A stretch of DNA of 64,000 nt from Chloroflexota bacterium (GTDB taxonomy: Bacteria > Chloroflexota > JAJPGV01), in NCBI GenBank assembly GCA_021325635.1, contig JAJPGV010000018.1, positions 94,412 through 158,411 of the forward strand, written 5' to 3'. Of the stretch, positions 13,677 to 62,834 are shown one piece after another. Below the pieces are notes generated by a model that saw nothing but the letters and a program-made list of their open reading frames with translations, had not been told where the DNA came from and did no database searches. Each line of letters begins with the position of its first letter. The stretch's first letter is position 1. A program made the translations under genes and the position numbers.

Positions 13677-14072
13677 ATGAACGAGTCCTTGCGGGTGATT
13701 CCATGCTGCCCGCCGATCTCACAGGCGGAGCTGTCCTCCGATGAGGCCGAACAGCTGGCCACGACCCTCAAGGCAGTGGCCGACCCGGCCCGCATTCGCC
13801 TTCTCAGCCTGATCCAGGCGCAGCCTCAGGGTGAGGCCTGCGTATGCCACTTGACGGAACCGCTCGGCCTGGGCCAGCCGACCGTGAGCCACCACCTCAG
13901 GGTGCTGGAAGATGCCGGCTTCCTCACGCATGAGCGGCGAGGGCGCTGGGTGTACTACCGCGCCGTGCCCGAACGACTGGCGGCCGTGCGAGATGCCTTC
14001 GCCCCGTCCCCCAAGCGCGCTGCCAGTCATGCAAAGGTCGTGAACGTGAGCTCGAAGGAATTGTCATGCTGA
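13677..14072 (+). CDS. arsR: ArsR/SmtB-family metalloregulator
   Basis: HTH pattern DPARIRLLSLI...CVCHL...GLGQPTVSHHLRVLEDAGF with a Cys pair for As(III) sensing. The start is chosen at ATG 13677; earlier in-frame ATGs exist back to 13446. Confidence 0.7.
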   Translation: MNESLRVIPCCPPISQAELSSDEAEQLATTLKAVADPARIRLLSLIQAQPQGEACVCHLTEPLGLGQPTVSHHLRVLEDAGFLTHERRGRWVYYRAVPERLAAVRDAFAPSPKRAASHAKVVNVSSKELSC

Positions 14073-14282
14073 GCGTGAACCGAAGCATCCCGGCCACACC
14101 TGCCGAGGGTTCCTTCTGGCGTCGTTCCGGTTAACCGCCATCGGCTCGGGATGATCGTTCCGCGAGCGGCTGAGGTGGGTGGCGGTGGTATGTGCGGCAA
14201 CGGCATCCTGGCATCAGAACGTATTGACATCCGAGGGAATTATCCCCTTGACGGCGGTACTGCACAAGCGTATAGTGGGGGT

Positions 14283-15233
14283 ATGTCCAAGGTAGATCGC
14301 AACCAGCCCCGACGATCCACTGCTTCGGAATCGCGCTACACGCTCTTTGAGTTTGACCGTGATTTCCCGGACGATGCTGCCTGCCTTGATTGGCTGGTAG
14401 GCCAGCTCTATCCGAACGGGATTCACTGCCCAAAGTGCGACAAGGTGACGAAGCACTACCGGGACCACAACCGCCCCTCGTATTCGTGTGAATACTGCGG
14501 GCACCGCGAGCACCCTATGGCCGGAACCATCTTTCAGGATTCGGCCACGTCGCTTCGCTTGTGGTTCTACGCGTTCTACCTGATGTCCAGCACTCGCTGC
14601 GGTATCTCCGCGAAACAGCTTGAGCGCGAGCTTGGCGTGACCTACAAGACGGCGTGGCGCATGTTCAACCGCATCCGCTCGCTCATGTATCAGTGCGACG
14701 CGCCGATTACCGAAGGCACCGTCGAGATTGATGAGGCCTACATCGGCGGCAAAGCGCACTGGCGAAGCAGAGGACGCGCTACCGGCATCAAGGGCGGCAT
14801 TAAGGGCAAGACCCAGGTGCTTGGATTCGCGCAACGTGGGGTGGACGGTGAGCCGGGAACCATCACGGCCAAAGTCATGCCCAACAACGTCAAGCGTGCA
14901 GTGCTCAACGAAGTCACAACCAAGGTGCTCGAAAAGGCCATCATCTACACCGATGAGGCCAACGCCTACGAGACGCTGACGAAGAAGGGCTATCACCATC
15001 GGCGCGTTCACCATCGCCAGAACATCTACGTCGATGGGGACGTTCACACGAACACCATCGAAGGGTTTTGGTCGCTGTTGAAGCGCGGAATCAGCGGCGT
15101 CTATCATGGCGTCTCCACCAAGCACCTTCAAACGTACTTGGACGAGTACACCTTCCGCTACAACAACCGGGAGGCTGATGGTAAAGGTATCTTCGACGTG
15201 CTTATGGAGCGGATTGAGAAGGCCCCGGCTTAG
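14283..15233 (+). mobile_element. IS1595-family (ISXO2-like) DDE transposase gene
   Basis: 317 aa with an N-terminal zinc ribbon (CPKCDK...CEYCGH). IS1595 core follows (DEAYIGG...YTDEANAY...TNTIEGFWSLLKRGI...YLDEYTFRYNNR). Element ends were not resolved by eye. Confidence 0.8.
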
Positions 15234-15390
15234 GCTTAGGGGCCTTCTCTGTTGCCTGGCGTAGCGGCTTGAAAAACTCGTCCCGCGTGGGCACTGGTAT
15301 CTCCAATCCGCCAGGCGTGTACTGCACGGGCTCTCCTGGCCGCGTGAGCGGCTTGTTGGGCTTGCGGGCCATCGTTCCTCCAGTCTAGCC

Positions 15391-16179
15391 ATGCTGCTCT
15401 ACCAACATCCCCCCTGTAGCTGGTCCTTGCGGTACCAACGGGCGCTCGATCATTTCGACACGTTCCACAAGACGTTTGAGTGGTTCCGCGAAAGTCACCC
15501 GTGCAAACTGGCTGTAAATCCTCAAAGTGAGCATCCGGGCGGGCTGATCTACGTCAAGGGCATCGACGCGGCACCCTTGCAGCTGAGCGTCATGCTTGGC
15601 GATGCGTTGCAGAACCTTCGCCAGTCCCTTGACCACATCGTTTGGGAATTGTCCATCGGAGCCACTGACAACTCGCGCACTGAGTTCTTCATCTCCGACA
15701 ATGCCAAGCTGTTCCGTACAAGGGGCATGGGGCGGATTGCCCGTGTCACCGACGATGCCAAGGCATTTATCGACGCTGTCCAGCCGTATTACCGAGGGGA
15801 CTTCACCGACAAGGCTCACGCGGAACCCTTGTGGATTCTGGACCGACTTGGAAATGTCGATAAGCACCGTGCCATTCACCTCCTGATGGTCAAGCCGCAC
15901 GGGACTTCCATCAGGTTCATTACGCCTGAGCGCGTTGAGTATTGGGACCTGACGCCGCCTAACATCAAGCTTGAACCTGGCGCAGTAGTCGGGGCTGTCA
16001 CGCAAGAACAACTGGACGCCATTTCCAAGGGAGAAGTGAATATGAATTTCACTATGGAGCTTGAGATAGCGTTCGCCGATGGTCCCGCTAAGGATCGGCT
16101 CGTAAGAGAAGTCTGGGCTGAGCTCAGTGCGGAGGTCGACGCCATCTTGACGCGCCTCTCCTATTGGCTCGTTGAGTAG
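15391..16179 (+). CDS. hypothetical protein with an HEPN-like Rx6H motif (possible abortive-infection / toxin-like cargo)
   Basis: 262 aa. Local GC is lower than the flanks. RLGNVDKH fits the HEPN Rx4-6H nuclease motif. The gene lies directly 3' of the IS transposase. Confidence 0.45.
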   Translation: MLLYQHPPCSWSLRYQRALDHFDTFHKTFEWFRESHPCKLAVNPQSEHPGGLIYVKGIDAAPLQLSVMLGDALQNLRQSLDHIVWELSIGATDNSRTEFFISDNAKLFRTRGMGRIARVTDDAKAFIDAVQPYYRGDFTDKAHAEPLWILDRLGNVDKHRAIHLLMVKPHGTSIRFITPERVEYWDLTPPNIKLEPGAVVGAVTQEQLDAISKGEVNMNFTMELEIAFADGPAKDRLVREVWAELSAEVDAILTRLSYWLVE

Positions 16180-16278
16180 CAAACGCGTCAAGACGCCACC
16201 CCATCGGGGAGGTCGCCTGCTGACATAAGGCTTATTACCCTACCCCTGTACGGTATAGTCCGTAACAGGAATACGTCA

Positions 16279-16602
16279 GTGTCGTATGTATCGGAGGTGA
16301 GTAGGGAGTTCTCGCCTCCGCTCGACCCCGGCATCGCGATAGCTGTGCAGCGGCTATTGGATGCGGGCGTCGAAACGTTTGAGTCTTGCCAGGGTGGCCC
16401 GGAGCACGCATATGCCCAGCCCACCGTAAGATTCCACGGCGAGCGCGCAGAGGGGTTCCGCGCACTCGCCGCAGCAATCCAAGCCGGTCTGCGGGTTACA
16501 GGGTTACGACGCGTTTGGCCGGTTCTTGACGGAGAACCGACCGGACCGTGGTGGGAGCTGACGTTCGCTCCCGAATTGACTATCTCGCCTAGGGCGCCGT
16601 AA
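16279..16602 (+). CDS. hypothetical small protein (107 aa), second cargo gene
   Basis: Co-oriented with the 262-aa gene. No recognisable domain. Confidence 0.3.
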   Translation: MSYVSEVSREFSPPLDPGIAIAVQRLLDAGVETFESCQGGPEHAYAQPTVRFHGERAEGFRALAAAIQAGLRVTGLRRVWPVLDGEPTGPWWELTFAPELTISPRAP

Positions 16603-16987
16603 AGAAGCGCTGGACTAGCCCCAGCGCTGAGCACCGTTCGCAGAGTGGATACCCGCCGGTTCCCCTCTGCGCGTGCCAGGGTCGTATGTTTTGGCCTGCC
16701 GTGCAGTCCGTATTGTTGTGATACACCGACTCCAAGTCGGAGCGGTAGGGTTGGGTGACTATGTTTATCTCCTTTCTGGGATGTAACCCACGCTGACCGG
16801 CTGCTCGCAGTATGACGCGCGGATTGATCGTAATAACGTGACAACCTGCTAGAACTAAGGTTCGATCGCCTGCTAGGAGATTGTACCGACATCAATGGGA
16901 TAATTCCCACATCCGACGATATGTTCAGCCATACTCCGATACATCGATCGGCATCGATATCTCGGCGGTCTAAGAAGGAGTAGTCGC

Positions 16988-17800
16988 ATGGCAGATGTGA
17001 AGCAGGCAGTACGCGAGCGTTACGGCGCCATCGCCGCCAATGTCGCTGAGGGGCAGCGCAATGTTGGCTGTTGTGAGGGCCCGAGCAGTTGCTGCGGGGG
17101 TGGGGAAAAGGACGTCATCAGCAGAGATCTGTACGACCAGGTGCAGATGGGTGACGTGCCGGCGGCGGCCCTGCTGGCCTCGCTGGGATGCGGCAATCCC
17201 ACAGCTCTGGCGCAGCTGCAGCCCGGCGAAACGGTGCTGGACCTTGGCAGTGGCGGTGGCATAGACGTGCTCCTCTCGGCCAAGCGTGTGGGTCCAAGCG
17301 GCTTCGCGTACGGTCTGGACATGACCGACGAGATGCTGTCCCTGGCCGAGCGCAACAGGGCCGAAGCGGGCGCCACCAACGTCGCGTTCCTCAGGGGAGA
17401 CATCGAGGCCATTCCGCTGCCGGATGAGACGATGGACGTGATCATCTCCAACTGCGTGATTAACCTGGCCGCGGACAAGGACAAAGTGCTGGCCGAGGCC
17501 TTCCGCGTCCTGAAGCGCGGTGGCCGGCTGGCGGTGTCGGACGTCGTGGTGCGGGGGCAGGTCCCAGAGGGGCTGCGCCGGCAGATGGAGTCGTGGGTCG
17601 GCTGCATCGCGGGCGCGCTGTCGGAAGACGAATACCGGTCCAAGCTGACCGCGGCGGGATTCGCCGAGGTCGACCTGGAGAGCACGCGCGCATATTCCTT
17701 GGACGACGTGCCCACCGGCGACTGGCAGCCCACCAAGCAGGATCGGGAGCAGCTCGAAGGCAAGTTCGTCAGCGCCTTCGTGCGGGCGTCCAAGCCCTAA
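16988..17800 (+). CDS. arsM: arsenite S-adenosylmethionine methyltransferase
   Basis: Class I SAM-binding motif VLDLGSGGGID. The ArsM/AS3MT-type Cys set is present (N-terminal CC...CC, later LGCGNP and SNCVIN). A low-GC promoter region lies upstream. Confidence 0.85.
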   Translation: MADVKQAVRERYGAIAANVAEGQRNVGCCEGPSSCCGGGEKDVISRDLYDQVQMGDVPAAALLASLGCGNPTALAQLQPGETVLDLGSGGGIDVLLSAKRVGPSGFAYGLDMTDEMLSLAERNRAEAGATNVAFLRGDIEAIPLPDETMDVIISNCVINLAADKDKVLAEAFRVLKRGGRLAVSDVVVRGQVPEGLRRQMESWVGCIAGALSEDEYRSKLTAAGFAEVDLESTRAYSLDDVPTGDWQPTKQDREQLEGKFVSAFVRASKP

Positions 17801-24967: not shown

Positions 24968-24997
24968 ATCTAGATTAGACTAATCTAGATTAGATAC
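24968..24997. promoter_or_regulatory. perfect palindrome TCTAGATTAGaCTAATCTAGA (also an 11-bp direct repeat), putative PadR operator
   Basis: Sits in the 52-bp divergent intergenic region between the ICMT-like gene and padR. Confidence 0.5.
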
Positions 24998-34011: not shown

Positions 34012-34055
34012 CAGGGACTTGGGTTCCTTTCCGGTAAAAGGAACCCAAGTCCCTG
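34012..34055. promoter_or_regulatory. 19-bp perfect inverted repeat CAGGGACTTGGGTTCCTTT-ccggta-AAAGGAACCCAAGTCCCTG
   Basis: Lies in the divergent region between the cupin gene and the hemerythrin gene, ~100 nt upstream of the hemerythrin ATG. Confidence 0.5.
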
Positions 34056-35570: not shown

Positions 35571-35917
35571 GCTGGCACCCCCCGCCCTTCAGGCTCCGCG
35601 GCATTGGCCCCGTGTTTCACCGTTCCGATGCACGTAGCCGAGCAGCCTTGGGCAAGGCGCGCCAGGTTGACGCACCTGTTCACGCCCACGGCCTTCGGCG
35701 TGGGCGTGAACAGGTGCGAGTCCTCGGGGGCCCAGTAGGCGCTCCGCAGACGCTGCGGGGTCGGCGGACGAAACTCGTAGGGGATCCGGCCCCACAACTG
35801 CCCGTGCCAGGTTCGCCGTCCAGCAGGCTTTCGCAGCTCTTGCGCGACCGCAAGTCCAACCAGCGCCGCGCCAACCACCGACACCAGCCCACGAAGCTTC
35901 TTGGCTTTCGTTCTCAT
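35567..35917 (-). CDS. small membrane-anchored hypothetical protein
   Basis: Start chosen at MRTKAKKLRG (GGAGGT RBS). One TM helix. Overlaps the GyrI-like gene's start by 4 nt. Confidence 0.35.
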   Translation of the reverse strand: MRTKAKKLRGLVSVVGAALVGLAVAQELRKPAGRRTWHGQLWGRIPYEFRPPTPQRLRSAYWAPEDSHLFTPTPKAVGVNRCVNLARLAQGCSATCIGTVKHGANAAEPEGRGVPA

Positions 35918-47460: not shown

Positions 47461-47547
47461 GGGGAGGATGCCGCGTGGTCGCGCATCTGGTCTGTAACAC
47501 CGGAGCTCTCCCGAGCAATGCAGGTTCGATTCCTACCCTCCCCACCA
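47461..47547 (+). tRNA. tRNA-Tyr (GTA), class II with long variable arm, CCA encoded
   Basis: Acceptor GGGGAGG/CCTCCCC and anticodon arm CTGGT-CTGTAAC-ACCGG; T-loop TTCGATT. One C·A mismatch in the T-stem. Confidence 0.65.
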
Positions 47548-47593
47548 CAGCAGCCCCATGCACTTTCACAATCGAATACTGCTTGTTTGTTCA

Positions 47594-47686
47594 GGGGAGA
47601 TGGTCGAGCGGTCCAAGACGCGGCTCCGGAAATGCCGTGGGTGGGTTCTGTCCCGCCCCGAGGGTTCGAATCCCTCTCTCCCCGCC
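47594..47686 (+). tRNA. tRNA-Ser (GGA), class II; CCA not encoded
   Basis: Acceptor GGGGAGA/TCTCCCC, U8-G9, D-arm GTC-GAGCGGTCCAA-GAC, anticodon loop CCGGAAA, long variable arm, T-arm GAGGG-TTCGAAT-CCCTC. Position 33 is C and the 31-39 pair is U·U. Confidence 0.55.
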
Positions 47687-47689
47687 TTC

Positions 47690-47777
47690 CGAGAGGTGGC
47701 AGAGTGGCTTATTGCACCGCCTTCGAACAGCGGCAGGGGCGCAGCGCTCCTCATGGGTTCAAATCCCATCCTCTCGG
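47690..47777 (+). tRNA. tRNA-Ser (CGA), class II; C1-G72, CCA not encoded
   Basis: Acceptor CGAGAGG/CCTCTCG, D-arm GCA-GAGTGGCTTATT-TGC, anticodon arm CCGCC-TTCGAAC-AGCGG (C·A at 31-39), T-arm ATGGG-TTCAAAT-CCCAT. Confidence 0.55.
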
Positions 47778-47784
47778 CTTGCAT

Positions 47785-47860
47785 GGTCTCGTGGTGTAGT
47801 GGCCAGCACACGACCCTGTCAAGGTCGGGGGGCCGGGTTCGATTCCCGTCGAGACCGCCA
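47785..47860 (+). tRNA. tRNA-Asp (GTC), CCA encoded
   Basis: Acceptor GGTCTCG/CGAGACC, D-stem GTGT/GCAC, anticodon arm CGACC-CTGTCAA-GGTCG, T-loop TTCGATT. Confidence 0.8.
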
Positions 47861-54338: not shown

Positions 54339-55221
54339 GGCGGGGCCGCCATCCAGCAAGGACGGGGCTGGGCGGCCCGCGGACAGCGCTTCGCGCCTGC
54401 CCGATCGCCTGGCCATCAACACGGCTACGACTGAGCGGCTGCTCACGGGTTTCATCGCCAATGAGGTGCGTAAGGTGGGCTTTCAACGGGTGGTGGTTGG
54501 CCTGTCCGGCGGGATCGATTCCGCGCTGTCGGCCTTCCTGGCGGCCAGGGCACTGGGCCCCGAGAACGTCACCGCCATCATGATGCCCTACAGGACCAGC
54601 AGTCCCGAGAGCCTGGCGGACGCCCAGTCGGTGGTCGATCATCTGGCTGTCGGCAGCAAGCTCATCGAGATTACGCCGATGGCCGACGCATTCATCGCCC
54701 AGAGCAACGCGGATACCAACAAGCGCAAAGGCAACGTGATGGCCCGCACCCGAATGGTCGTGCTGTACGACCAGTCGGAGGCGTTGAACGCCCTGGTGCT
54801 TGGCACCAGTAACAAGACCGAGCTGCTGCTGGGCTACGGCACGCTCCATGGGGACATGGCCTCGGCCATCAACCCACTGGGGGATCTCTACAAGACCCAG
54901 GTTTGGGCATTGAGCGAAGCGCTGGGTGTGCCCGACAGCATCGTGAACAAGCCGCCAACGGCCGACCTATGGGTTGGCCAGACCGACGAGGGCGAGCTTG
55001 GCTTCAGCTACCGGGCGGTGGATGAGGTCCTGTTTCAGCTGGTGGACGAGCGCTACTCAGAGGACGAGCTCGTCGAGCGCGGTTACGATGCGACCTTCGT
55101 GCGCAAGGTAGCGCGGCTGATCATGATCTCCCAGTTCAAACGAGCGCTGCCGGTTATCGCCAAGATCTCGGCGCGAACGATTACCCGCGAGTTCCGCTAT
55201 CCGCGGGATTGGGGTCGCTGA
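54298..55221 (+). CDS. nadE: NAD+ synthetase (stand-alone NadE domain)
   Basis: PP-loop SGGIDS and a NadE fold. Start is GTG 54298 or TTG 54328. Confidence 0.85.
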
Positions 55222-55256
55222 GCGGCGATACGCCGCTCAGCGACCCCAATCCCGCG

Positions 55257-58454: not shown

Positions 58455-59564
58455 ATGAAACGCATAGACGCCGACAGCCACTTCCTGCCGCCCTGTGAGC
58501 TGGACGGCCTGGACGACGTCCTGCCGGGCTTTAGTCCCGAGGCGCTCCGAATCATCGAGCGTGACGCCCAGGTGCTGGCCGATCCCGACGCTCGGCGCGG
58601 CGGCTTTCGAGCGACGGCCGCCGGTAAGGAAGCGAGCAGGATTCAGCCGCGCAAGGGGGCGATCGGTCTCGCCGATCCGGCCGAGCGCGTAGAGCTGCTG
58701 CCGCAGACCGGTTTCGACATGCAGGTGCTCATCCCGCACGGCATCTACGCCAATCCGTTTGGTTCCCCCCTGGGCCCCGATATGGAGCCCGGCCTGCGCA
58801 TGGCGCTCTGCCGAGCCTATAACCTGGCGGCCGCCGACGCCCAGAAGCGCTTCCCCGATCGGCTCATCGGCACGGCCATCGTGCCCTTTGGGGACGTGGA
58901 GGAATCCTGCCGCGAAGCAGCGTACGCCGTGTGCGAGCTGGGCCTGCGCGCGGTGACCATCAACGGCAACTGGGTTGGACGCAACTACGACAGCGTGGAG
59001 CTGTTCCCTTTCTGGAAGAAGATGAACGAGCTCGAGGCGGTGCTGTACGTGCACCACAACCCGTTTCCATGCCAGGTGAGCGAGCACCTGGTGCGCACCT
59101 ACACGCTCGGCTGGGAGCGCATGCGCCGGCTGCACGTCAGCAATTACCTGGGCTTTGCCTTCGAGTACATGATGGGCATGGCCAGCCTCACGTTGGGCGG
59201 GGTGCTGGAACAGTTCCCCAAGCTCAAGTTCTGCTTCTTCGAGGCGGGCGGGTCCTTCCTGCCATACACCATGTACACGCTCGATCGCGTCTACAGAGTG
59301 GAGCCGCAGTGCGCCCGCTGCTCGCGTCCGCCCAGCGAGATGATCCGCGAAGCCTGCTTCGTGGCCGTGGAGCCGGACGAGTTCTGCCTGCCGCAGAGCG
59401 TGGCCGCCATTGGCAGCGAGAATTTCATCATCGGCAGCGACTATCCCCACGCTCCATCGACGTTCCCCAATACCGCGGCTGGTATCGAGCGCATGGATGG
59501 CCTGTCAGACCGGGACAAGGAGAACATTCTGGGCGGAAACATGCAGCGCCTGTTCCGCCTCTAG
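58455..59564 (+). CDS. amidohydrolase-2 family metal-dependent hydrolase (ACMSD/decarboxylase-like)
   Basis: PF04909-like pattern (DSHFLPP...VLYVHHNPF...FEAGGSF...IGSDYPH). Confidence 0.7.
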   Translation: MKRIDADSHFLPPCELDGLDDVLPGFSPEALRIIERDAQVLADPDARRGGFRATAAGKEASRIQPRKGAIGLADPAERVELLPQTGFDMQVLIPHGIYANPFGSPLGPDMEPGLRMALCRAYNLAAADAQKRFPDRLIGTAIVPFGDVEESCREAAYAVCELGLRAVTINGNWVGRNYDSVELFPFWKKMNELEAVLYVHHNPFPCQVSEHLVRTYTLGWERMRRLHVSNYLGFAFEYMMGMASLTLGGVLEQFPKLKFCFFEAGGSFLPYTMYTLDRVYRVEPQCARCSRPPSEMIREACFVAVEPDEFCLPQSVAAIGSENFIIGSDYPHAPSTFPNTAAGIERMDGLSDRDKENILGGNMQRLFRL

Positions 59565-59595
59565 CCGGGAAAAGAAACAGCAGGGAGAAAGCAAT

Positions 59596-60390
59596 TTGGC
59601 AAAGCTGACGGTCGCTGCGCTGCAGCAGATGAAGCGCGACGGCAAGAAGATCGCGGCGATGGTGGCCTACGAGTACAACATGGCCAAGATCCTGGATAAG
59701 GCAGGCGCGGACCTCATCTCGGTTGGCGACAGCGTGGGCATGCGCTTCCTCGGGCAGGTGACGCATTACGAGACCACCATGGAGCAGATGATCCAGTGCT
59801 GCTACGCGGTGACGCAGGCGGTCGAGCACGCGGTGGTGAACTGCGACCTGCCCTTCGGTCCGATACAGGAAGGGCCGGATTCCGCCGTCCGCGCGGCTAT
59901 ACGGCTGGTGAAAGAGGGCCGGGCTGAGATGGTCAAGGTCGACGGCGCGGCCGAGAACCCGGAGGCGGTGCGAGCCATCGCCCGCGCCGGCATCCCGGTG
60001 TGGGCCCAGTTCGGCTTCACGCCGCAGACGACGCAGCAGTTCGGCGGCTTCGAGAGCATCACCGACGACATCCGCGCCAAGATGAAGGACACCCTGGTCA
60101 GCCAGGCCAAGATGCTGGAAGAGGCCGGTGCCTCGATGTTCGACTGCACCAACGTGGGCAATGAGATCGTGGGCGCGATCGCCAAGGCCGTGAGCATCCC
60201 GGTGCTGGGCGGTTTCAACACCGGTCCGGCGGCCGATGGCCGTGTCACCGTAAGCTACGGCTATGTGGGCTATGACGGCAACCGCATCGACGCCGAGCCC
60301 CGGCGAGGGGGCATCAACGTGGCCAAGACGATCTCCGACGCGGTGTCGGGCTACTTCGCCAGCGTACGCGACGGGACGGCCGCGCCATAG
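59596..60390 (+). CDS. 3-methyl-2-oxobutanoate hydroxymethyltransferase (PanB)-family / ICL-PEPM-superfamily enzyme
   Basis: TTG start 8 nt after AGGGAG. PanB-like pattern (KIAAMVAYEYNMAKILDKAGADLISVGDSVGM...CDLPFG). Confidence 0.65.
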   Translation: MAKLTVAALQQMKRDGKKIAAMVAYEYNMAKILDKAGADLISVGDSVGMRFLGQVTHYETTMEQMIQCCYAVTQAVEHAVVNCDLPFGPIQEGPDSAVRAAIRLVKEGRAEMVKVDGAAENPEAVRAIARAGIPVWAQFGFTPQTTQQFGGFESITDDIRAKMKDTLVSQAKMLEEAGASMFDCTNVGNEIVGAIAKAVSIPVLGGFNTGPAADGRVTVSYGYVGYDGNRIDAEPRRGGINVAKTISDAVSGYFASVRDGTAAP

Positions 60391-60432
60391 CGAACAGCGG
60401 GAAATCTCTGGACTGCTTGGAGGGAATGCGAA

Positions 60433-61329
60433 ATGGCTGAAATCGTAGGCTGCCTGGCGATGTCGCATGCGCCACAGCTGATGCTCGACCCGGATCAATG
60501 GCATCTGCTCAACACCCGCGACTGGGACCCGCTGCCGGAGCGGCCGGAGCTCAAGCTCGAGACGAATGAGGATCGCTGGCGTAAGTGGCAGAAGTGCCAG
60601 GACGCCATCGCTCAGCTGCGGGACAAGCTGGCCGAGCTGAATCCCGACACGGTCGTGCTCGTGGGCGACGATCAGCACGAGAATTTCCGCGAGCAGGGCA
60701 TGCCGCCCTTCACCGTCTTCATGGGTGAGGAAGCCGAGGCCAGCATCAGTCTGCGTTACCTCGACGAGAAGCTCAGCGACAACCGCACCTGCTATCGCGT
60801 GGACTCCTCGCTCGCGCGCTGGCTGGTGGACCAGCTCATGGAGGAGGGCTTCGACCCGGCCTATTCGCTGAAGACCAGCTACGAGGGCGGGCTGGGCCAT
60901 GCCTTCGCCCGCGTGCTCAAGTTCCTCACGCCGGACGCGTCCCGGGCCGTGGTGCCGGTGCTGGTCAATACCTACTATCCGCCGGCTCCGTCGCCGCGCC
61001 GCTGCGTGCAGTTCGGCCACGCGCTGCGCAAGGTCATCGCCCAGTTCCCCGAATCGCGCCGCGTGCTGGCGGTAGCCTCCGGCGGGCTTACTCATACGAA
61101 GATCGTGGAGTCCCTGGACCACGAGTTCATCAAGGCGATCGAGGACAACGACCTGACGTATATGGAGCGCATGGCGCCCGACGACCTCACCGGCGGCAGC
61201 TCGGAAATCAGGAACTGGTCCGTCATCGCGGCTATGGCCGGCAAGGCGGGTCGGGTGATCGAGTACCAGCCGCTGTACCGCACCACCAACGGCGTCGGCT
61301 GCGCCATGGGCTTCGCCCACTGGCTGTAG
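60433..61329 (+). CDS. LigB-family (class III) extradiol ring-cleavage dioxygenase
   Basis: N-terminal MSHAPQ plus His ligands (HENF...GGLTH) typical of protocatechuate-4,5- / gallate-dioxygenase catalytic subunits. Confidence 0.8.
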   Translation: MAEIVGCLAMSHAPQLMLDPDQWHLLNTRDWDPLPERPELKLETNEDRWRKWQKCQDAIAQLRDKLAELNPDTVVLVGDDQHENFREQGMPPFTVFMGEEAEASISLRYLDEKLSDNRTCYRVDSSLARWLVDQLMEEGFDPAYSLKTSYEGGLGHAFARVLKFLTPDASRAVVPVLVNTYYPPAPSPRRCVQFGHALRKVIAQFPESRRVLAVASGGLTHTKIVESLDHEFIKAIEDNDLTYMERMAPDDLTGGSSEIRNWSVIAAMAGKAGRVIEYQPLYRTTNGVGCAMGFAHWL

Positions 61330-61334
61330 GTGTC

Positions 61335-61610
61335 CCCGCCGGCCGGCTCGTCCGCGAGGGTGCAGCGCGGGCCTTGCGCCCCGCCGTGGTTGCGGGGACA
61401 AATGGGCTGGATGGCGAACGATGACGGGCGGGGGACAAGCCCCCGTGCTACATGGTTCGGAATGGCCCGCCGGCCGGCTCGTCTGCGAGGGTGTAGCGCG
61501 GGGCCTTGCGCCCCGCTCTGGTTGCGCGGACAAATGGGCTGGATGGCAAACGATGATGGGCGGGGGACAAGCCCCCGTGCTACATGGTTCGGAATGGCCG
61601 CCGGCCGGCG
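61335..61610. repeat. tandem direct repeat, two ~131-bp copies (>90% identical) plus a 12-bp start of a third
   Basis: Copy 1 runs ~61335-61465 and copy 2 ~61466-61597. Each contains the hairpin CGGGGG-acaag-CCCCCG. The overlapping 111-aa ORF (61330..61665) translates to a repeated nonsense peptide. Confidence 0.7.
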
Positions 61611-61657
61611 CGCGACGAACGACGCCGCGAAACAGCTGAATAACGAGGAGCGTGCAA

Positions 61658-62770
61658 ATGGCTGATAAGGTGCTGGCCGCCGTCAAGATTGGGCCGAAGC
61701 AGACGGAGCTCAGGGAGCTCGAGCTGCCGGACATCCCTCCCGAAGCCGGCTTGCTGAAGGTCGAGGCCGCCGGCATCTGCGGCAGCGACGTGATGAGCTA
61801 TCCCAGGGAGGACCGCGGCCACCTGATCATGGGGCACGAGAACGTTGGTGTCATCGCCAAGGTGGGCCGTGTGGCCGCCGAGCGCTGGGGCGTGCGTGAA
61901 GGCGACCGGGTGGCGATCGAGGAGTACCTGCCGTGCTGGCACTGCGAGTGGTGCCACGTTGGCGAGTACCGGCTGTGCAAGACGGCCGACCACTTCTTCG
62001 ATCCCAATAACCTGCGCTTCGGCTCGACGCCGCTGCAGCGGGATCCCGGGCTGTGGGGCGGCTTCAGCCAGTACCTCTACCTGCCGCCGCAAACGGTCAT
62101 GCATCGCGTGCCCTCTGGTCCGCCATTGGAGCAGCTGGCGATGGCGCTGCCGATGGGCAACGGCGTGCAGTGGGCCTGCGTCGAAGGGGAGGCCGGCCCC
62201 GGCAAGACCGTCGTCATCATGGGCCCGGGCCAGCAGGGGCTGGCCTGCGTCGTGGCCGCCCGGGCCTCCGGCGCCCACAAGGTGATCGTCACCGGCACCG
62301 GCCGCGACGGCTACCGCCTGGACATTGCCCGCCAGCTGGGCGCCGACGCCACGATCGACATTCAAGCCGAAGACCTGCGCCAGCGGATCGCCGACCTCAC
62401 CGATGGCCGCGGGGTCGATTCCGTGGTCGATACCACCAATGCGCGCGGGACGCAGGTGATCGTCGACGCCATCGACATCCTCAAGCACAAGGGCGGCGTC
62501 ATGGTGGCGCAGGGCACACCGACGGTGCCCGATTTTCCGCTGGGCAAGCTGACCCGCAAGTACATCACGCTTAAGAGCGCGCGCGGCCACAGCTACCAGT
62601 CGGTGGAGATCGGGCTGTCCTATATCGCTTCCGGCCGCTACCCCCTGCACCTGATCACCACCGACAAGTTCGGGCTGGATAGGGTGGATACGGCCATCCG
62701 GTCCACCGGCGGAGAGGTGAGCTCCACGTCTATCCACGTCACGGTTGACCCGTGGCTGGCGATTGCTTGA
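61658..62770 (+). CDS. zinc-dependent alcohol/threonine-dehydrogenase-like MDR oxidoreductase
   Basis: Catalytic Zn (GICGSDV...GHE), structural Zn Cys4 (CWHCEWCHVGEYRLC) and NAD Rossmann (VIMGPGQQG). GAGGAG RBS. Confidence 0.85.
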   Translation: MADKVLAAVKIGPKQTELRELELPDIPPEAGLLKVEAAGICGSDVMSYPREDRGHLIMGHENVGVIAKVGRVAAERWGVREGDRVAIEEYLPCWHCEWCHVGEYRLCKTADHFFDPNNLRFGSTPLQRDPGLWGGFSQYLYLPPQTVMHRVPSGPPLEQLAMALPMGNGVQWACVEGEAGPGKTVVIMGPGQQGLACVVAARASGAHKVIVTGTGRDGYRLDIARQLGADATIDIQAEDLRQRIADLTDGRGVDSVVDTTNARGTQVIVDAIDILKHKGGVMVAQGTPTVPDFPLGKLTRKYITLKSARGHSYQSVEIGLSYIASGRYPLHLITTDKFGLDRVDTAIRSTGGEVSSTSIHVTVDPWLAIA

Positions 62771-62834
62771 TAATGCGGCGCGAATAGCGACCGCCTGCGC
62801 AGGTTGCGGCGGTTAGCGCCCTAAGGAGGTTTCC

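Follow-up and report, generated by a model that had tools for sequence, protein, structure and literature searches.

A tandem repeat between a LigB-family gene and a Zn-ADH gene

The window (the whole 64-kb stretch of DNA that was analyzed) includes a gene for a LigB-family extradiol dioxygenase-like protein that is followed by a gene for a Zn-dependent alcohol dehydrogenase (Zn-ADH), with a tandem repeat array lying between them (Table 1). The first-pass annotation had assigned the array to this intergenic region, and the placement is borne out by Pfam matches for both neighbors and by their common location on the plus strand. Indeed, the four genes that extend from upstream to downstream of the array are all on the plus strand. 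The array begins 5 nt after the LigB-family gene, whose TAG stop codon (61327-61329) resides inside a GTAG tetranucleotide (61326-61329).

TRF reports a single array at positions 61335-61609 with a period of 132, 2.1 copies, 93% matches, and a score of 485, and this is by far the strongest repeat of the window. The initial description, based on the sequence alone, was of 2.1 copies of an ~131-bp repeat, comprising two near-identical units plus the first 12 nt of a third, with a strong GC hairpin in each unit. We find this description to be accurate. The units are 131 and 132 nt in length, their alignment reveals seven substitutions and one 1-nt indel, and they are followed by CCGCCGGCCGGC at positions 61598-61609. 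Likewise, the hairpin CGGGGG-ACAAG-CCCCCG is present at positions 61429-61445 and 61561-61577. In addition, a GC-rich palindrome called P (GCCGGCCGGC) bounds the modules, occurring at positions 61335-61347 and 61466-61478, and for a third time at 61598-61609. The array both opens and closes in this linker palindrome.

Table 1. Positions of genes and repeat components at the LigB-ADH locus
Feature	Position	Strand	Basis
LigB-family extradiol dioxygenase-like gene	60433-61329	+	ORF list; Pfam LigB (1e-23)
Unit (module) 1, U1, 131 nt, degraded copy	61335-61465	+	TRF; alignment; nhmmer (1e-41)
REP-A1, TGCAG-CGCGGGC-CTTGC-GCCCCGC	61361-61384	+	Four-way motif alignment; nhmmer (2e-7)
Inter-REP spacer a1, 43 nt	61385-61427	+	Motif coordinates
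REP-B1, minus strand TGTAG-CACGGGGG-CTTGT-CCCCCGC	61428-61452	-	0-mismatch pattern match; GTAG-tagged hairpin detector
Inter-module linker b, 39 nt, with palindrome P (GCCGGCCGGC)	61453-61491	+	Inverted-repeat list
Unit (module) 2, U2, 132 nt, intact copy	61466-61597	+	TRF; alignment; nhmmer (3e-44)
Intact REP doublet (GTAG tags outward, "HH dimer", REPIN-like)	61492-61584		Folding
REP-A2, TGTAG-CGCGGGGC-CTTGC-GCCCCGC	61492-61516	+	Motif alignment; pattern match; hairpin detector
Inter-REP spacer a2, 43 nt	61517-61559	+	Motif coordinates
REP-B2, identical to REP-B1	61560-61584	-	Motif alignment; pattern match; hairpin detector
Partial third copy, 12 nt, CCGCCGGCCGGC	61598-61609	+	Sequence; inverted-repeat list
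Unique 3' intergenic part	61610-61657	+	Sequence; holds ADH Shine-Dalgarno GAGGAG (61645-61650)
Zn-dependent alcohol dehydrogenase (Zn-ADH) gene	61658-62770	+	Pfam ADH_N and ADH_zinc_N; homologs

The 80 relatives of the LigB-family protein are at most 66% identical to it and derive from Binatia and delta-proteobacterial MAGs, and the closest ADH relatives (80-82% identical) are from Chloroflexota MAGs. The best identity observed for housekeeping proteins of the host is ~70%, to mixed phyla. The loci of the LigB and ADH relatives exhibit no synteny with this junction, no repeat unit, and no ADH gene adjoining a LigB gene. A resemblance to the repeat upstream of ADH in L110 was rejected as being at chance level (score 14 versus 13.4 +/- 1.7).

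Each unit is a pair of inverted, GTAG-tagged palindromes

Each unit is formed by two oppositely oriented, ~25-nt GC-rich palindromes that carry outward-facing GTAG tags (in one instance GCAG). A module includes REP-A, a 43-nt spacer, an inverted REP-B whose right end reads CTAC, and a 39-nt linker, and this arrangement occurs twice, head-to-tail. The four REPs thus run A(+) B(-) A(+) B(-), separated by 43, 39, and 43 nt. The REP motif of the array can be written as GTAGCRCGGGGSCTTGYSCCCCG, or in degenerate form as GYAG-N(1-2)-CGGGG[GC]-N5-[GC]CCCCG.

GTAG-type REPs are GC-rich, imperfect palindromes of 20 to 40 nt with a stem of 5 to 13 bp, a short loop, and a conserved, unpaired GT(A/G)G or GYAG tag at one end of the palindrome. 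The four copies in the array all have this palindrome and tag, with a GC stem of 6 to 7 bp, a 5-nt loop, and a tag located 1 to 2 nt from the stem. In REP-A2, the GTAG tag is intact and the 7-bp stem is perfect, and the hairpin of the initial description is part of REP-B1. In REP-A1, the tag has decayed to GCAG and one G of the stem is absent. Thus, the tag is GTAG in three of the four copies and GCAG in the other, which agrees with the GYAG degeneracy reported for these elements (PMC3733652).

The two motifs of a unit, when one is inverted, are identical at 21 of 25 positions. This value is ~7 SD above the shuffle null (13.8 +/- 1.0, maximum 17), and the best match to the motif among 205 other hairpins in the window is 17 of 25. 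Six perfect GTAG-tagged hairpins are present in the 64 kb, three of which are inside the 328-nt intergenic region, compared to a background of 2.9 per 64 kb in 1.06 Mb of MAG DNA, where no cluster of at least three was observed. When every one of the 256 tetranucleotides is considered as a tag, GTAG yields the most tagged hairpins at the locus, in a tie with the overlapping TAGC. Covariation analysis has no statistical power with just two modules. Given that the unit consists of an inverted pair of GTAG-tagged palindromes, we group the array with REP, BIME, and REPIN elements.

Folding of the doublets and RNA-based readings

The U2 doublet folds as one long hairpin on the plus strand, with a minimum free energy of -51.4 kcal/mol (z -3.65), and the minus strand yields -44.1 kcal/mol (z -4.24). 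When folded as DNA, the z-scores are -2.8 and -3.0. The U1 doublet is degraded (z -0.6 and -1.2), and the fold of the whole region has a z-score of -2.5. The plus strand is more stable than the minus strand owing to G-U pairs, and this predicted difference fits transcription that runs the same way as the genes. Nevertheless, the antisense and DNA folds are nearly as significant, which points to a palindrome that exists at the DNA level.

The array had been proposed to form terminators for the LigB-family gene or a structured 5' leader for ADH. In its canonical sense, the terminator proposal is unsupported: an intrinsic terminator scan of positions 60400-62800 returned 0 sites, and the hairpins are followed by UGCUACAUGG rather than by a U-tract. 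The leader proposal finds no backing in Rfam, where no model matches near any gathering score and the best hits are to meaningless miRNA models (E 2.7-10). Furthermore, no tRNA or tmRNA is present in the repeat region and no promoter consensus is evident in the spacer, leaving ADH with no recognizable promoter of its own. The last 73 nt of the region, including the Shine-Dalgarno site, form no significant fold (z -0.7).

Open reading frames over the repeat

An ORF of 111 codons covers the array (61330-61665). Its GTG start at 61330 immediately follows the LigB-family TAG, and its TGA (61663-61665) overlaps the start of the ADH gene (ATG 61658). This ORF had been judged to be nothing other than the repeat in translation, and our results agree with this view. 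The 111-aa product has no homolog among 5.8 billion protein clusters and no Pfam match. Its codon log-odds score is -0.18 per codon versus a gene median of +0.56, and its GC content by codon position is flat (0.66/0.70/0.74), whereas real genes have values near 0.68/0.46/0.85. A conserved coding signal across the repeat in homologous loci had been named as a finding that would speak against a noncoding element. At this locus, composition, codon usage, and homolog searches show no coding signal.

A frame on the minus strand is open as well, and a 782-aa antisense ORF covers the region. A search with the minus frame against 1.84 billion representatives yielded a sole match, to a sequence (P0121) that proved to be a one-unit form of the same locus read antisense. 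Neither the 111-aa ORF nor the 782-aa antisense ORF should be annotated as a gene.

Assembly support and copy number

The first-pass annotation cautioned that the two copies might have been created by duplication during assembly. Unique junction k-mers and the break pattern of a Logan assembly indicate that the array is not an artefact of this kind. Specifically, the k-mers that cross the U1-U2 junction (21, 31, and 41 nt) are unique, the longest word able to make a false join is 12 nt, and the junction reads GGCC-C-GCC, unlike either alternative context. The Logan assembly of run SRR5581483, which is independent and was built with k=31, breaks at 61455 (= 61425+30) and restarts at 61570 (= 61600-30). 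Unitig ends at exactly these positions are what k=31 predicts for a 42-nt shared tail with two entries and two exits. Such ends arise only if the shared tail branches on its entry side and on its exit side, and therefore reads that continue from this tail into the head of U2 must exist. A sequence that reads across the two-unit join would span ...GGAATGGCCCGCCGGCCGGCTCGTCTG.

P0121, which comes from another assembly of run SRR5581483, contains the junction with exactly one module. This one-unit version is either a copy-number variant or the product of an assembler shortcut through the 42-nt shared tail. The earlier suggestion of VNTR behavior gains a case of possible variation, but the MIRU assignment that accompanied it is not supported (see below). 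The same run also holds an ADH variant with 99% identity, and more than one strain may therefore be present.

Searches for further copies and for a RAYT

Outside the array, the remaining 63.7 kb of the window yielded no copy of the unit or of the motif to a repeat search, nhmmer --max, or a degenerate pattern permitting up to 3 mismatches. The 3 kb beyond the window hold no further motif copy, and 1.02 Mb of fetched MAG loci hold no copy of the unit or the motif. A BLAST search of plasmids and phages with the repeat gave no match, and three viral scans produced one chance hairpin match only. Two scans of public collections employed patterns that represent the spacer and not the REP motif: a 25-nt pattern had 0 matches in 185,579 species genomes, and an 18-nt pattern had 26 matches in metagenomes, all of them chance matches to the 18-mer only. 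The first 50 kb of T. roseum NC_011961 contain no GTAG-tagged hairpin cluster.

No RAYT/Y1 transposase is encoded among the ~55 window ORFs scanned. The only transposase of the window is an unrelated IS1595-type DDE enzyme. We rejected the repeat as a MITE derived from this IS1595 element because the 44-nt ends of the element are unrelated to the repeat.

Comparison with known repeat systems

REPs occur in tens to thousands of copies per genome, with a cognate RAYT flanked by the same REPs, and BIMEs bind DNA gyrase, IHF, or Pol I. Among the modular BIMEs of Enterobacteria, Stenotrophomonas, and Xanthomonas (Gilson, Bachellier; Nunvar et al. 2010, PMC2817692), including BIME-2, each module combines two REPs with two dissimilar inter-REP segments and recurs head-to-tail, and the number of modules differs between strains. 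The array likewise has alternating REPs with regular spacing, a head-to-tail module made of two inverted REPs and two distinct inter-REP segments, an extragenic location between co-oriented genes, slightly altered REPs, and a module number that is possibly variable. In contrast to these BIMEs, it has only two modules, its REP sequence is unrelated to the Y/Z units of E. coli, and its host belongs to a high-GC soil lineage rather than to the proteobacteria.

In the GTAG REP superfamily (Di Nocera et al. 2013, PMC3733652), HH dimers with outward tags are the predominant type, their spacers measure 20-100 bp, and small, clustered families exist. Typically, these REPs lie close to the 3' end of the preceding ORF, for the most part between ORFs that are unidirectional or convergent, with the stop codon within the GTAG (PMC3733652). 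The array shares the unpaired GTAG/GYAG tag, the 6- to 7-bp GC stem, the short loop, the HH dimer with a conserved spacer within the 20-100 bp range, tandem reiteration together with flanking DNA, associated small GC-rich palindromes, and proximity to the 3' end of the preceding gene, whose TAG is inside a GTAG. It departs from the superfamily in having 1 to 2 unpaired nt between tag and stem and a 5-nt loop. As with GTAG-23 of Thermomicrobium roseum and Roseiflexus (PMC3733652), the array is clustered rather than dispersed. However, its stem, C[G/A]CGGGG[C/G], has no obvious match to what can be deduced of GTAG-23 (PMC3733652), and GCCGGCCGGC, the palindrome of the linker, departs from CCGSSCC(n3-4)GGSSCGG, the target consensus in T. 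roseum.

A further parallel is with REPINs (Bertels & Rainey; PMC3337134), in that inverted REPs are joined by a spacer and the intact 93-nt doublet forms one long hairpin whether it is folded as RNA or as DNA, and on both strands. Folding into a long hairpin has been described for REPINs and HH dimers (PMC3337134, PMC3733652). The likeness concerns this one locus, whereas REPINs by definition form populations that number in the tens to hundreds, with a cognate RAYT present in a single copy (PMC3337134).

The array was initially described as MIRU-like. Similar to the MIRU-VNTR loci of Mycobacterium (Supply et al. 1997; PMC3184786), it is a tandem repeat in an intergenic region of a GC-rich genome, within a series of co-oriented genes, its open frame adjoins the stop codon on the upstream side and overlaps the start codon on the downstream side, and its copy number is possibly polymorphic. 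However, MIRUs measure 40-100 bp and occupy ~40-50 loci per genome (PMC3184786), whereas the units of the array are 131-132 nt, its frame has no coding signature, and its internal anatomy is that of a GTAG-REP doublet. We do not classify the array as a MIRU because its unit exceeds the MIRU length range and the searches described above turned up no dispersed copies.

ERIC and MITE elements are ~127 bp in length, have terminal inverted repeats and short (TA) target duplications, and are dispersed as single copies. By analogy, the size of the unit, its long imperfect hairpin, and its presumably transcribed intergenic position are similar. In contrast, the inverted parts of the array are GTAG-tagged palindromes, the units are arranged in tandem, and the direct repeat that flanks them measures 12-13 nt.

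Interpretation and alternative explanations

Given these features, the array probably represents a small BIME-like cluster of GTAG-type REPs. As such, it looks like a known kind of bacterial "junk/regulatory" DNA and like nothing new in kind. REPINs normally move as single-stranded DNA through the action of a RAYT/Y1 transposase whose gene is at another genomic site. We propose that a REPIN-like REP doublet landed or arose in the LigB-ADH spacer and was then reiterated, either by the RAYT-linked amplification that has been proposed for BIMEs or by slipped-strand or unequal recombination between the 12- to 13-nt GC-rich direct repeats.

The upstream operon and the array are probably transcribed together, because the four genes are all on the plus strand and ADH has a Shine-Dalgarno sequence but no recognizable promoter. 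By analogy with REPs elsewhere, effects on the LigB-ADH transcript are plausible. For example, the long GC hairpins might serve as a barrier to 3'-5' exonucleases or as a site of processing or Rho attenuation, and they could decouple the mRNA level on the LigB side from that on the ADH side. The element itself would be for the most part selfish or neutral, and its influence on expression would be modest and incidental.

A different history is that a hairpin-bearing, 197-nt spacer was duplicated once, through slippage or unequal recombination between its 12- to 13-nt direct repeats (CCGCCGGCCGGC), and has since drifted by ~6%, in which case the tags and the symmetry would be fortuitous or locus-specific and neither a genome-wide family nor a transposase would be involved. 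The failure to find another copy in anything searched and the lack of a RAYT in the window favor this view, as does the same short direct repeat at both ends of the array, a classic signature of slippage. In addition, the junction is not syntenic in any relative, suggesting that the spacer is young and lineage-specific. However, our estimate from base composition puts at ~2% the chance that a conserved flank of paired inverted hairpins reads GTAG at 0-2 nt from the stem, the inverted identity is far above its null, and the HH geometry, the 43-nt spacer, and the long hairpin match published REP dimers point by point. We therefore regard a simple local duplication as unlikely, although it is the explanation we weigh most seriously against a REP cluster.

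It is much less probable that the array is a cis-regulatory RNA, with tandem leader, attenuator, or riboswitch-like domains controlling ADH. Such a role would suit the location directly upstream of ADH on the sense strand, the better fold of the plus strand, and the z-score of the whole region. But Rfam provides no credible match with E allowed up to 10, the five loci with the closest ADH relatives (80-82% identity) have no such upstream sequence, the antisense and DNA structures are nearly as significant, module 1 is visibly decaying (z -0.6), and the final 73 nt with the Shine-Dalgarno site have no significant fold (z -0.7). Even more doubtful is a MIRU-like element whose frame, running from the LigB stop to past the ADH start, serves translational coupling. 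The contact of the GTG with the preceding TAG and the overlap of the TGA with the ATG resemble the way in which MIRU ORFs overlap neighboring genes (PMC3184786), yet the frame has no coding signal or homolog, a minus-strand frame is open too, and by our own estimate an open frame of this kind arises in a 66% GC repeat with a chance probability of ~0.1-0.2. The excessive unit length and the failure to find dispersed copies argue against this reading as well. Least credible of all is that the assembler placed two strain alleles of a single-copy spacer in tandem by mistake. The one-unit contig in the other assembly of SRR5581483 and the ADH variant, with its hint of more than one strain, could be cited in favor of an artefact, but these are outweighed by the unique junction k-mers with a false-join word of at most 12 nt, by a junction sequence that differs from both alternative contexts, and by Logan unitig ends that demand branching at the shared tail.

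If the array is indeed a REP cluster, then GTAG-type REP/BIME elements reach another poorly known lineage, and the locus offers a natural case for gain and loss of BIME modules within one population. A bolder reading, which we consider rather improbable, is that a REP/RAYT (REPIN-BIME) system is seen here for the first time in a deep, uncultured soil lineage of high GC content that lacks close sequenced relatives. The system would exist as a few tandem clusters in the manner of GTAG-23 and would still be active, with one- and two-module alleles coexisting in the SRR5581483 population. Any effect on the expression of LigB versus ADH would be of a kind already described for REPs in operons, and the practical value of the finding is modest. 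It includes a hazard for assembly, as short-read graphs break or collapse at this locus.

A tandem array between the LigB and ADH genes

The window, whose GC content is 66%, carries one strong tandem array (Tandem Repeats Finder: 61335-61609, period 132, 2.1 copies, 93% matches, score 485), and the remaining rows are short arrays of 1.9-3.7 copies with scores of at most 62. Its units, U1 and U2, align with seven substitutions and one 1-nt indel. Thus, both methods bear out the first-pass annotation, which described two near-identical 131/132-nt units followed by 12 nt of a third, and the hairpin it placed in each (CGGGGG-ACAAG-CCCCCG) is present in both. The flanking genes are also those it had named. 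They belong to a plus-strand run comprising amidohydrolase_2, ketopantoate-hydroxymethyltransferase-like, LigB, and ADH genes and one more ORF, annotated as an M24 peptidase in the copy of this locus assembled by Logan from run SRR5581483.

Features of the LigB-ADH spacer and its borders
Feature	Position	Strand	Length or sequence	Basis or remark
LigB-family ORF	60433-61329	+
Open frame	GTG 61330 to TGA 61665	+	111 aa	LigB frame continued beyond its stop
U1	61335-61465		131 nt	alignment
U2	61466-61597		132 nt	alignment
U2 5' hairpin apex	61492-61516		TGTAGCGCGGGGCCTTGCGCCCCGC	inverted-repeat search of locus
U2 3' hairpin	61560-61584		GCGGGGGACAAGCCCCCGTGCTACA	inverted-repeat search of locus
Partial third copy	directly after U2		12 nt, CCGCCGGCCGGC
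Zn-dependent alcohol dehydrogenase (ADH)	starts ATG 61658	+		GAGGAG in front

The two-copy junction is real. K-mers spanning it are unique at 21, 31, and 41 nt, and the longest word common to the array end and the array beginning is 12 nt, shorter than any assembler's k. In the Logan assembly, which is independent of the window's contig, LigB and ADH proteins identical to these are split over two contigs. The first stops at 61455, equivalent to the last U1-specific base (61425) plus 30, and the second starts at 61570, or 30 before 61600, the first base that distinguishes "tail then flank" from "tail then next unit." These breakpoints are the exact k=31 unitig ends for a 42-nt shared tail with two paths in and two out, and therefore the reads hold both unit bodies and the U1-U2 junction. 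Together with the unique junction k-mers, they rule out the duplication artefact that had been raised as a concern.

Each unit contains an inverted pair of GTAG-tagged palindromes

The main new result is the internal anatomy of the unit. The 5' hairpin apex and the 3' hairpin of U2 are reverse complements at 21 of 25 positions (shuffle null 13.8 +/- 1.0, maximum 17), a match that takes in the loop and the non-palindromic flank GCTACA/TGTAGC. When the 25-nt motif is compared with the 205 other perfect hairpins in the window, the best match is 17/25. Read in its own orientation, each copy consists of GTAG, 1-2 nt, a GC stem of 6-7 bp, and a 5-nt loop (CTTGC or CTTGT). The tag is intact in three of four copies; the fourth (U1, 61361-61384) reads GCAG and lacks one stem G. 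REPs are defined as GC-rich palindromes immediately behind a 5'-GT(A/G)G head (Nunvar et al. 2010, PMC2817692; also PMC3733652, 2013), and the motif matches this definition. A generic detector finds six perfect GTAG-tagged hairpins in the window, three of them inside this 328-nt spacer and three unrelated in sequence. The background in 1.06 Mb of DNA from metagenome-assembled genomes (MAGs) is 2.9 such hairpins per 64 kb, and nowhere do three cluster.

In both units the tags of the pair, REP-A (+) and REP-B (-), point outward across a 43-nt gap. This doublet is of the HH dimer type, the predominant one, whose conserved spacer is typically 20-100 bp (PMC3733652). Consecutive doublets are separated by a 39-nt linker carrying the palindrome GCCGGCCGGC, inside which both array ends fall. 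This gives the array the formula (A, 43 nt, B, 39 nt) x 2, arranged head-to-tail. Folded alone (61492-61584), the intact U2 doublet has one long hairpin as its minimum-energy structure, a REPIN-type fold (PMC3337134), and the plus-strand fold is favoured by G-U pairs.

Folding of the two doublets
Doublet	Molecule and strand	MFE (kcal/mol)	z
U2 (intact)	RNA, +	-51.4	-3.65
U2 (intact)	RNA, -	-44.1	-4.24
U2 (intact)	DNA, + and -	-24.7 and -23.0	-2.8 and -3.0
U1 (mutated)	RNA, + and -	-42.2 and -39.6	-0.6 and -1.2
U1 (mutated)	DNA, + and -	-20.3 and -18.0	about 0

The position of the array also fits REPs, which between co-oriented ORFs lie near the 3' end of the upstream ORF, whose TAG stop often derives from the GTAG terminus (PMC3733652). 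Here the array starts 5 nt past the LigB stop, which lies within a GTAG (61326-61329) that has no REP stem directly behind it. Right behind this stop (GTAG-G-TGTCCCCGC), the segment at 61331-61339 is a perfect complement of GCGGGGACA (61392-61400), present in unit 1 only; unit 2 has GCGCGGACA. The whole-region fold employs this pairing, which may be left over from another REP or have arisen by chance.

Classification and origin of the array

Given these features, we favor, with some reserve, reading the array as BIME-like: a small, new cluster built from GTAG-type REP doublets in a high-GC bacterium that is unclassified. The main alternative, in which an orphan local duplication resembles REPs by coincidence, appears less likely to us. 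The search for further copies proposed in the first-pass annotation came back empty: neither unit nor 25-nt motif recurs in the rest of the window, in the 3 kb by which the Logan contig extends past it, in 1.02 Mb of loci compared, or in plasmids or phages. Exact-pattern scans found no copy in viral contigs; those keyed on the spacer sequence, rather than on the REP motif, gave no copy in species genomes and only chance matches in metagenomes. No Y1-type (RAYT) transposase occurs among about 55 window ORFs. The lack of further copies is the weak point of the REP reading, as repetitiveness is the defining property of REPs, but absence from 64 kb is compatible with membership. The finding is genuine, though of an ordinary kind.

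No close relative of the organism has been sequenced: identities reach at most 66% for LigB, 82% for ADH, and 71% for malate synthase (the latter to proteins from mixed phyla). The LigB-like gene is closest to those of Binatia and "delta-proteobacterial" MAGs, and ADH to those of Chloroflexota MAGs (80-82%), where it sits alongside Rieske/LigXa, cupin, and NMT1 genes in clusters for aromatic catabolism. Among the relatives' loci compared (L029-L112), none is syntenic at the junction or carries the repeat sequence, and LigB and ADH are adjacent in none; thus, the repeat marks a lineage-specific gene junction.

The doublet may have been reiterated in one of two ways: RAYT-linked amplification, as proposed by Nunvar et al. 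(PMC2817692), or slippage or unequal exchange involving the linker palindrome's 12-13-nt direct repeats. The U1-U2 divergence of roughly 6% and the decay of module 1 (U1), whose tag is mutated, whose stem has lost a G, and whose hairpin z-score is close to zero, indicate a duplication of some age and, at least for module 1, no strong constraint.

Copy number may vary as well, and BIMEs show "extensive interstrain differences in length" (PMC2817692). When the minus-frame translation was searched exhaustively with HMMER, a single protein emerged, P0121, from a different assembly ("SRC") of SRR5581483. It equals the window's antisense ORF minus exactly one 132-nt unit, with all variable positions of the U1 type, and represents either a real population allele with one module or an assembler shortcut through U1 body, shared tail, and flank. 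The same run holds a 99% ADH variant (two substitutions, H112P and Q127K), so more than one strain may be present. This variant and the one-unit junction hint at strain heterogeneity in the source population.

The window ORFs include a single transposase, a DDE enzyme of the IS1595 type encoded in a low-GC island (14000-17000; GC 57-59% vs 66%), which is bracketed by 44-nt inverted repeats (14217-14260/16883-16926, 75% complementary). Its ORF at 14151-15233 (+) is IS1595/ISXO2-like with a Zn ribbon (Pfam 4e-40), and the other long island ORFs scanned have no Pfam match. The island probably represents an IS1595-family element that carries passenger genes; the repeat bears no relation to its ends.

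Coding, RNA, and regulatory readings

The first-pass annotation regarded the ORF over the repeat as just the repeat translated, and we agree. The 111-aa frame has no relatives among 5.8 billion protein clusters and no Pfam domain, its codon log-odds against the window's own genes are -0.18 per codon (gene windows: median +0.56, 5th percentile +0.25), and its GC by codon position is flat (0.66/0.70/0.74 vs about 0.68/0.46/0.85 in real genes). A coding reading was rejected on these grounds. In a repeat of 66% GC, an open frame this long is nothing unusual, and a minus-strand frame is likewise open. The 111-aa frame adjoins the stop of LigB and runs into the start of ADH, a layout described for MIRUs (PMC3184786). 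On the minus strand, a 782-aa ORF (59428-61776) lies antisense to two genes, the ketopantoate-hydroxymethyltransferase-like one and LigB, as well as to the entire repeat and the ADH start. This ORF is an artefact of high GC, yet a truncated version, P0121, sits in public collections as a predicted protein.

The structured-leader, terminator, and MIRU-like readings offered earlier fared less well. Rfam gave no match at the repeat even at E up to 10, and only tRNAs in the whole window at gathering thresholds; the sole ARAGORN result was a tRNA cluster away from the repeat, Tyr(GTA)-Ser(GGA)-Ser(CGA)-Asp(GTC) at 47461-47860 (+). A consensus scan of the spacer detected neither a sigma-70-like promoter nor a terminator of the hairpin-plus-U-tract kind. 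The labels riboswitch, terminator pair, and MIRU-like element were set aside in favor of the BIME-like cluster.

A Shine-Dalgarno sequence (GAGGAG) lies 7 nt in front of the ADH start, and no promoter or -10 box is recognisable there (61640-61660). In contrast, two close relatives (80-82% identity; L109 2700-2724, L110 7975-8001) have a TACAAT box 7-12 nt before the ATG and lack a Shine-Dalgarno sequence, suggesting that their mRNAs are leaderless or short-leader. This distinction suggests that the window's ADH is expressed differently, via upstream cotranscription, with the spacer probably transcribed from upstream. Its hairpins might then act as intercistronic REPs do (PMC2817692, PMC3184786, PMC3733652), as a 3'-5' exonuclease barrier or as a processing or Rho-attenuation site, which would uncouple LigB-side from ADH-side mRNA levels.

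Other hairpins in the window

Between the convergent NAD-synthase (+) and GAF-GGDEF-EAL (-) genes lies a perfect palindrome of 26 nt, looped by 3 nt (CGCGGGATTGGGGTCGCTGAGCGGCG/CGCCGCTCAGCGACCCCAATCCCGCG, 55202-55256), which lacks a GTAG tag and probably serves as a bidirectional terminator or 3'-end hairpin. Two more perfect hairpins, both very long, with stems of 19 and 20 bp (34012-34055 and 35671-35718), occur among regulator, cupin, hemerythrin, and GyrI-like protein genes between positions 32.3 and 36 kb. Finally, an AT-rich perfect palindrome (ATCTAGATTA-GAC-TAATCTAGAT, 24968-24990), located in a 52-nt spacer that separates two divergent genes, one for a PEMT/ICMT-like methyltransferase (-) and one for a PadR-family regulator (+), looks like the PadR operator.
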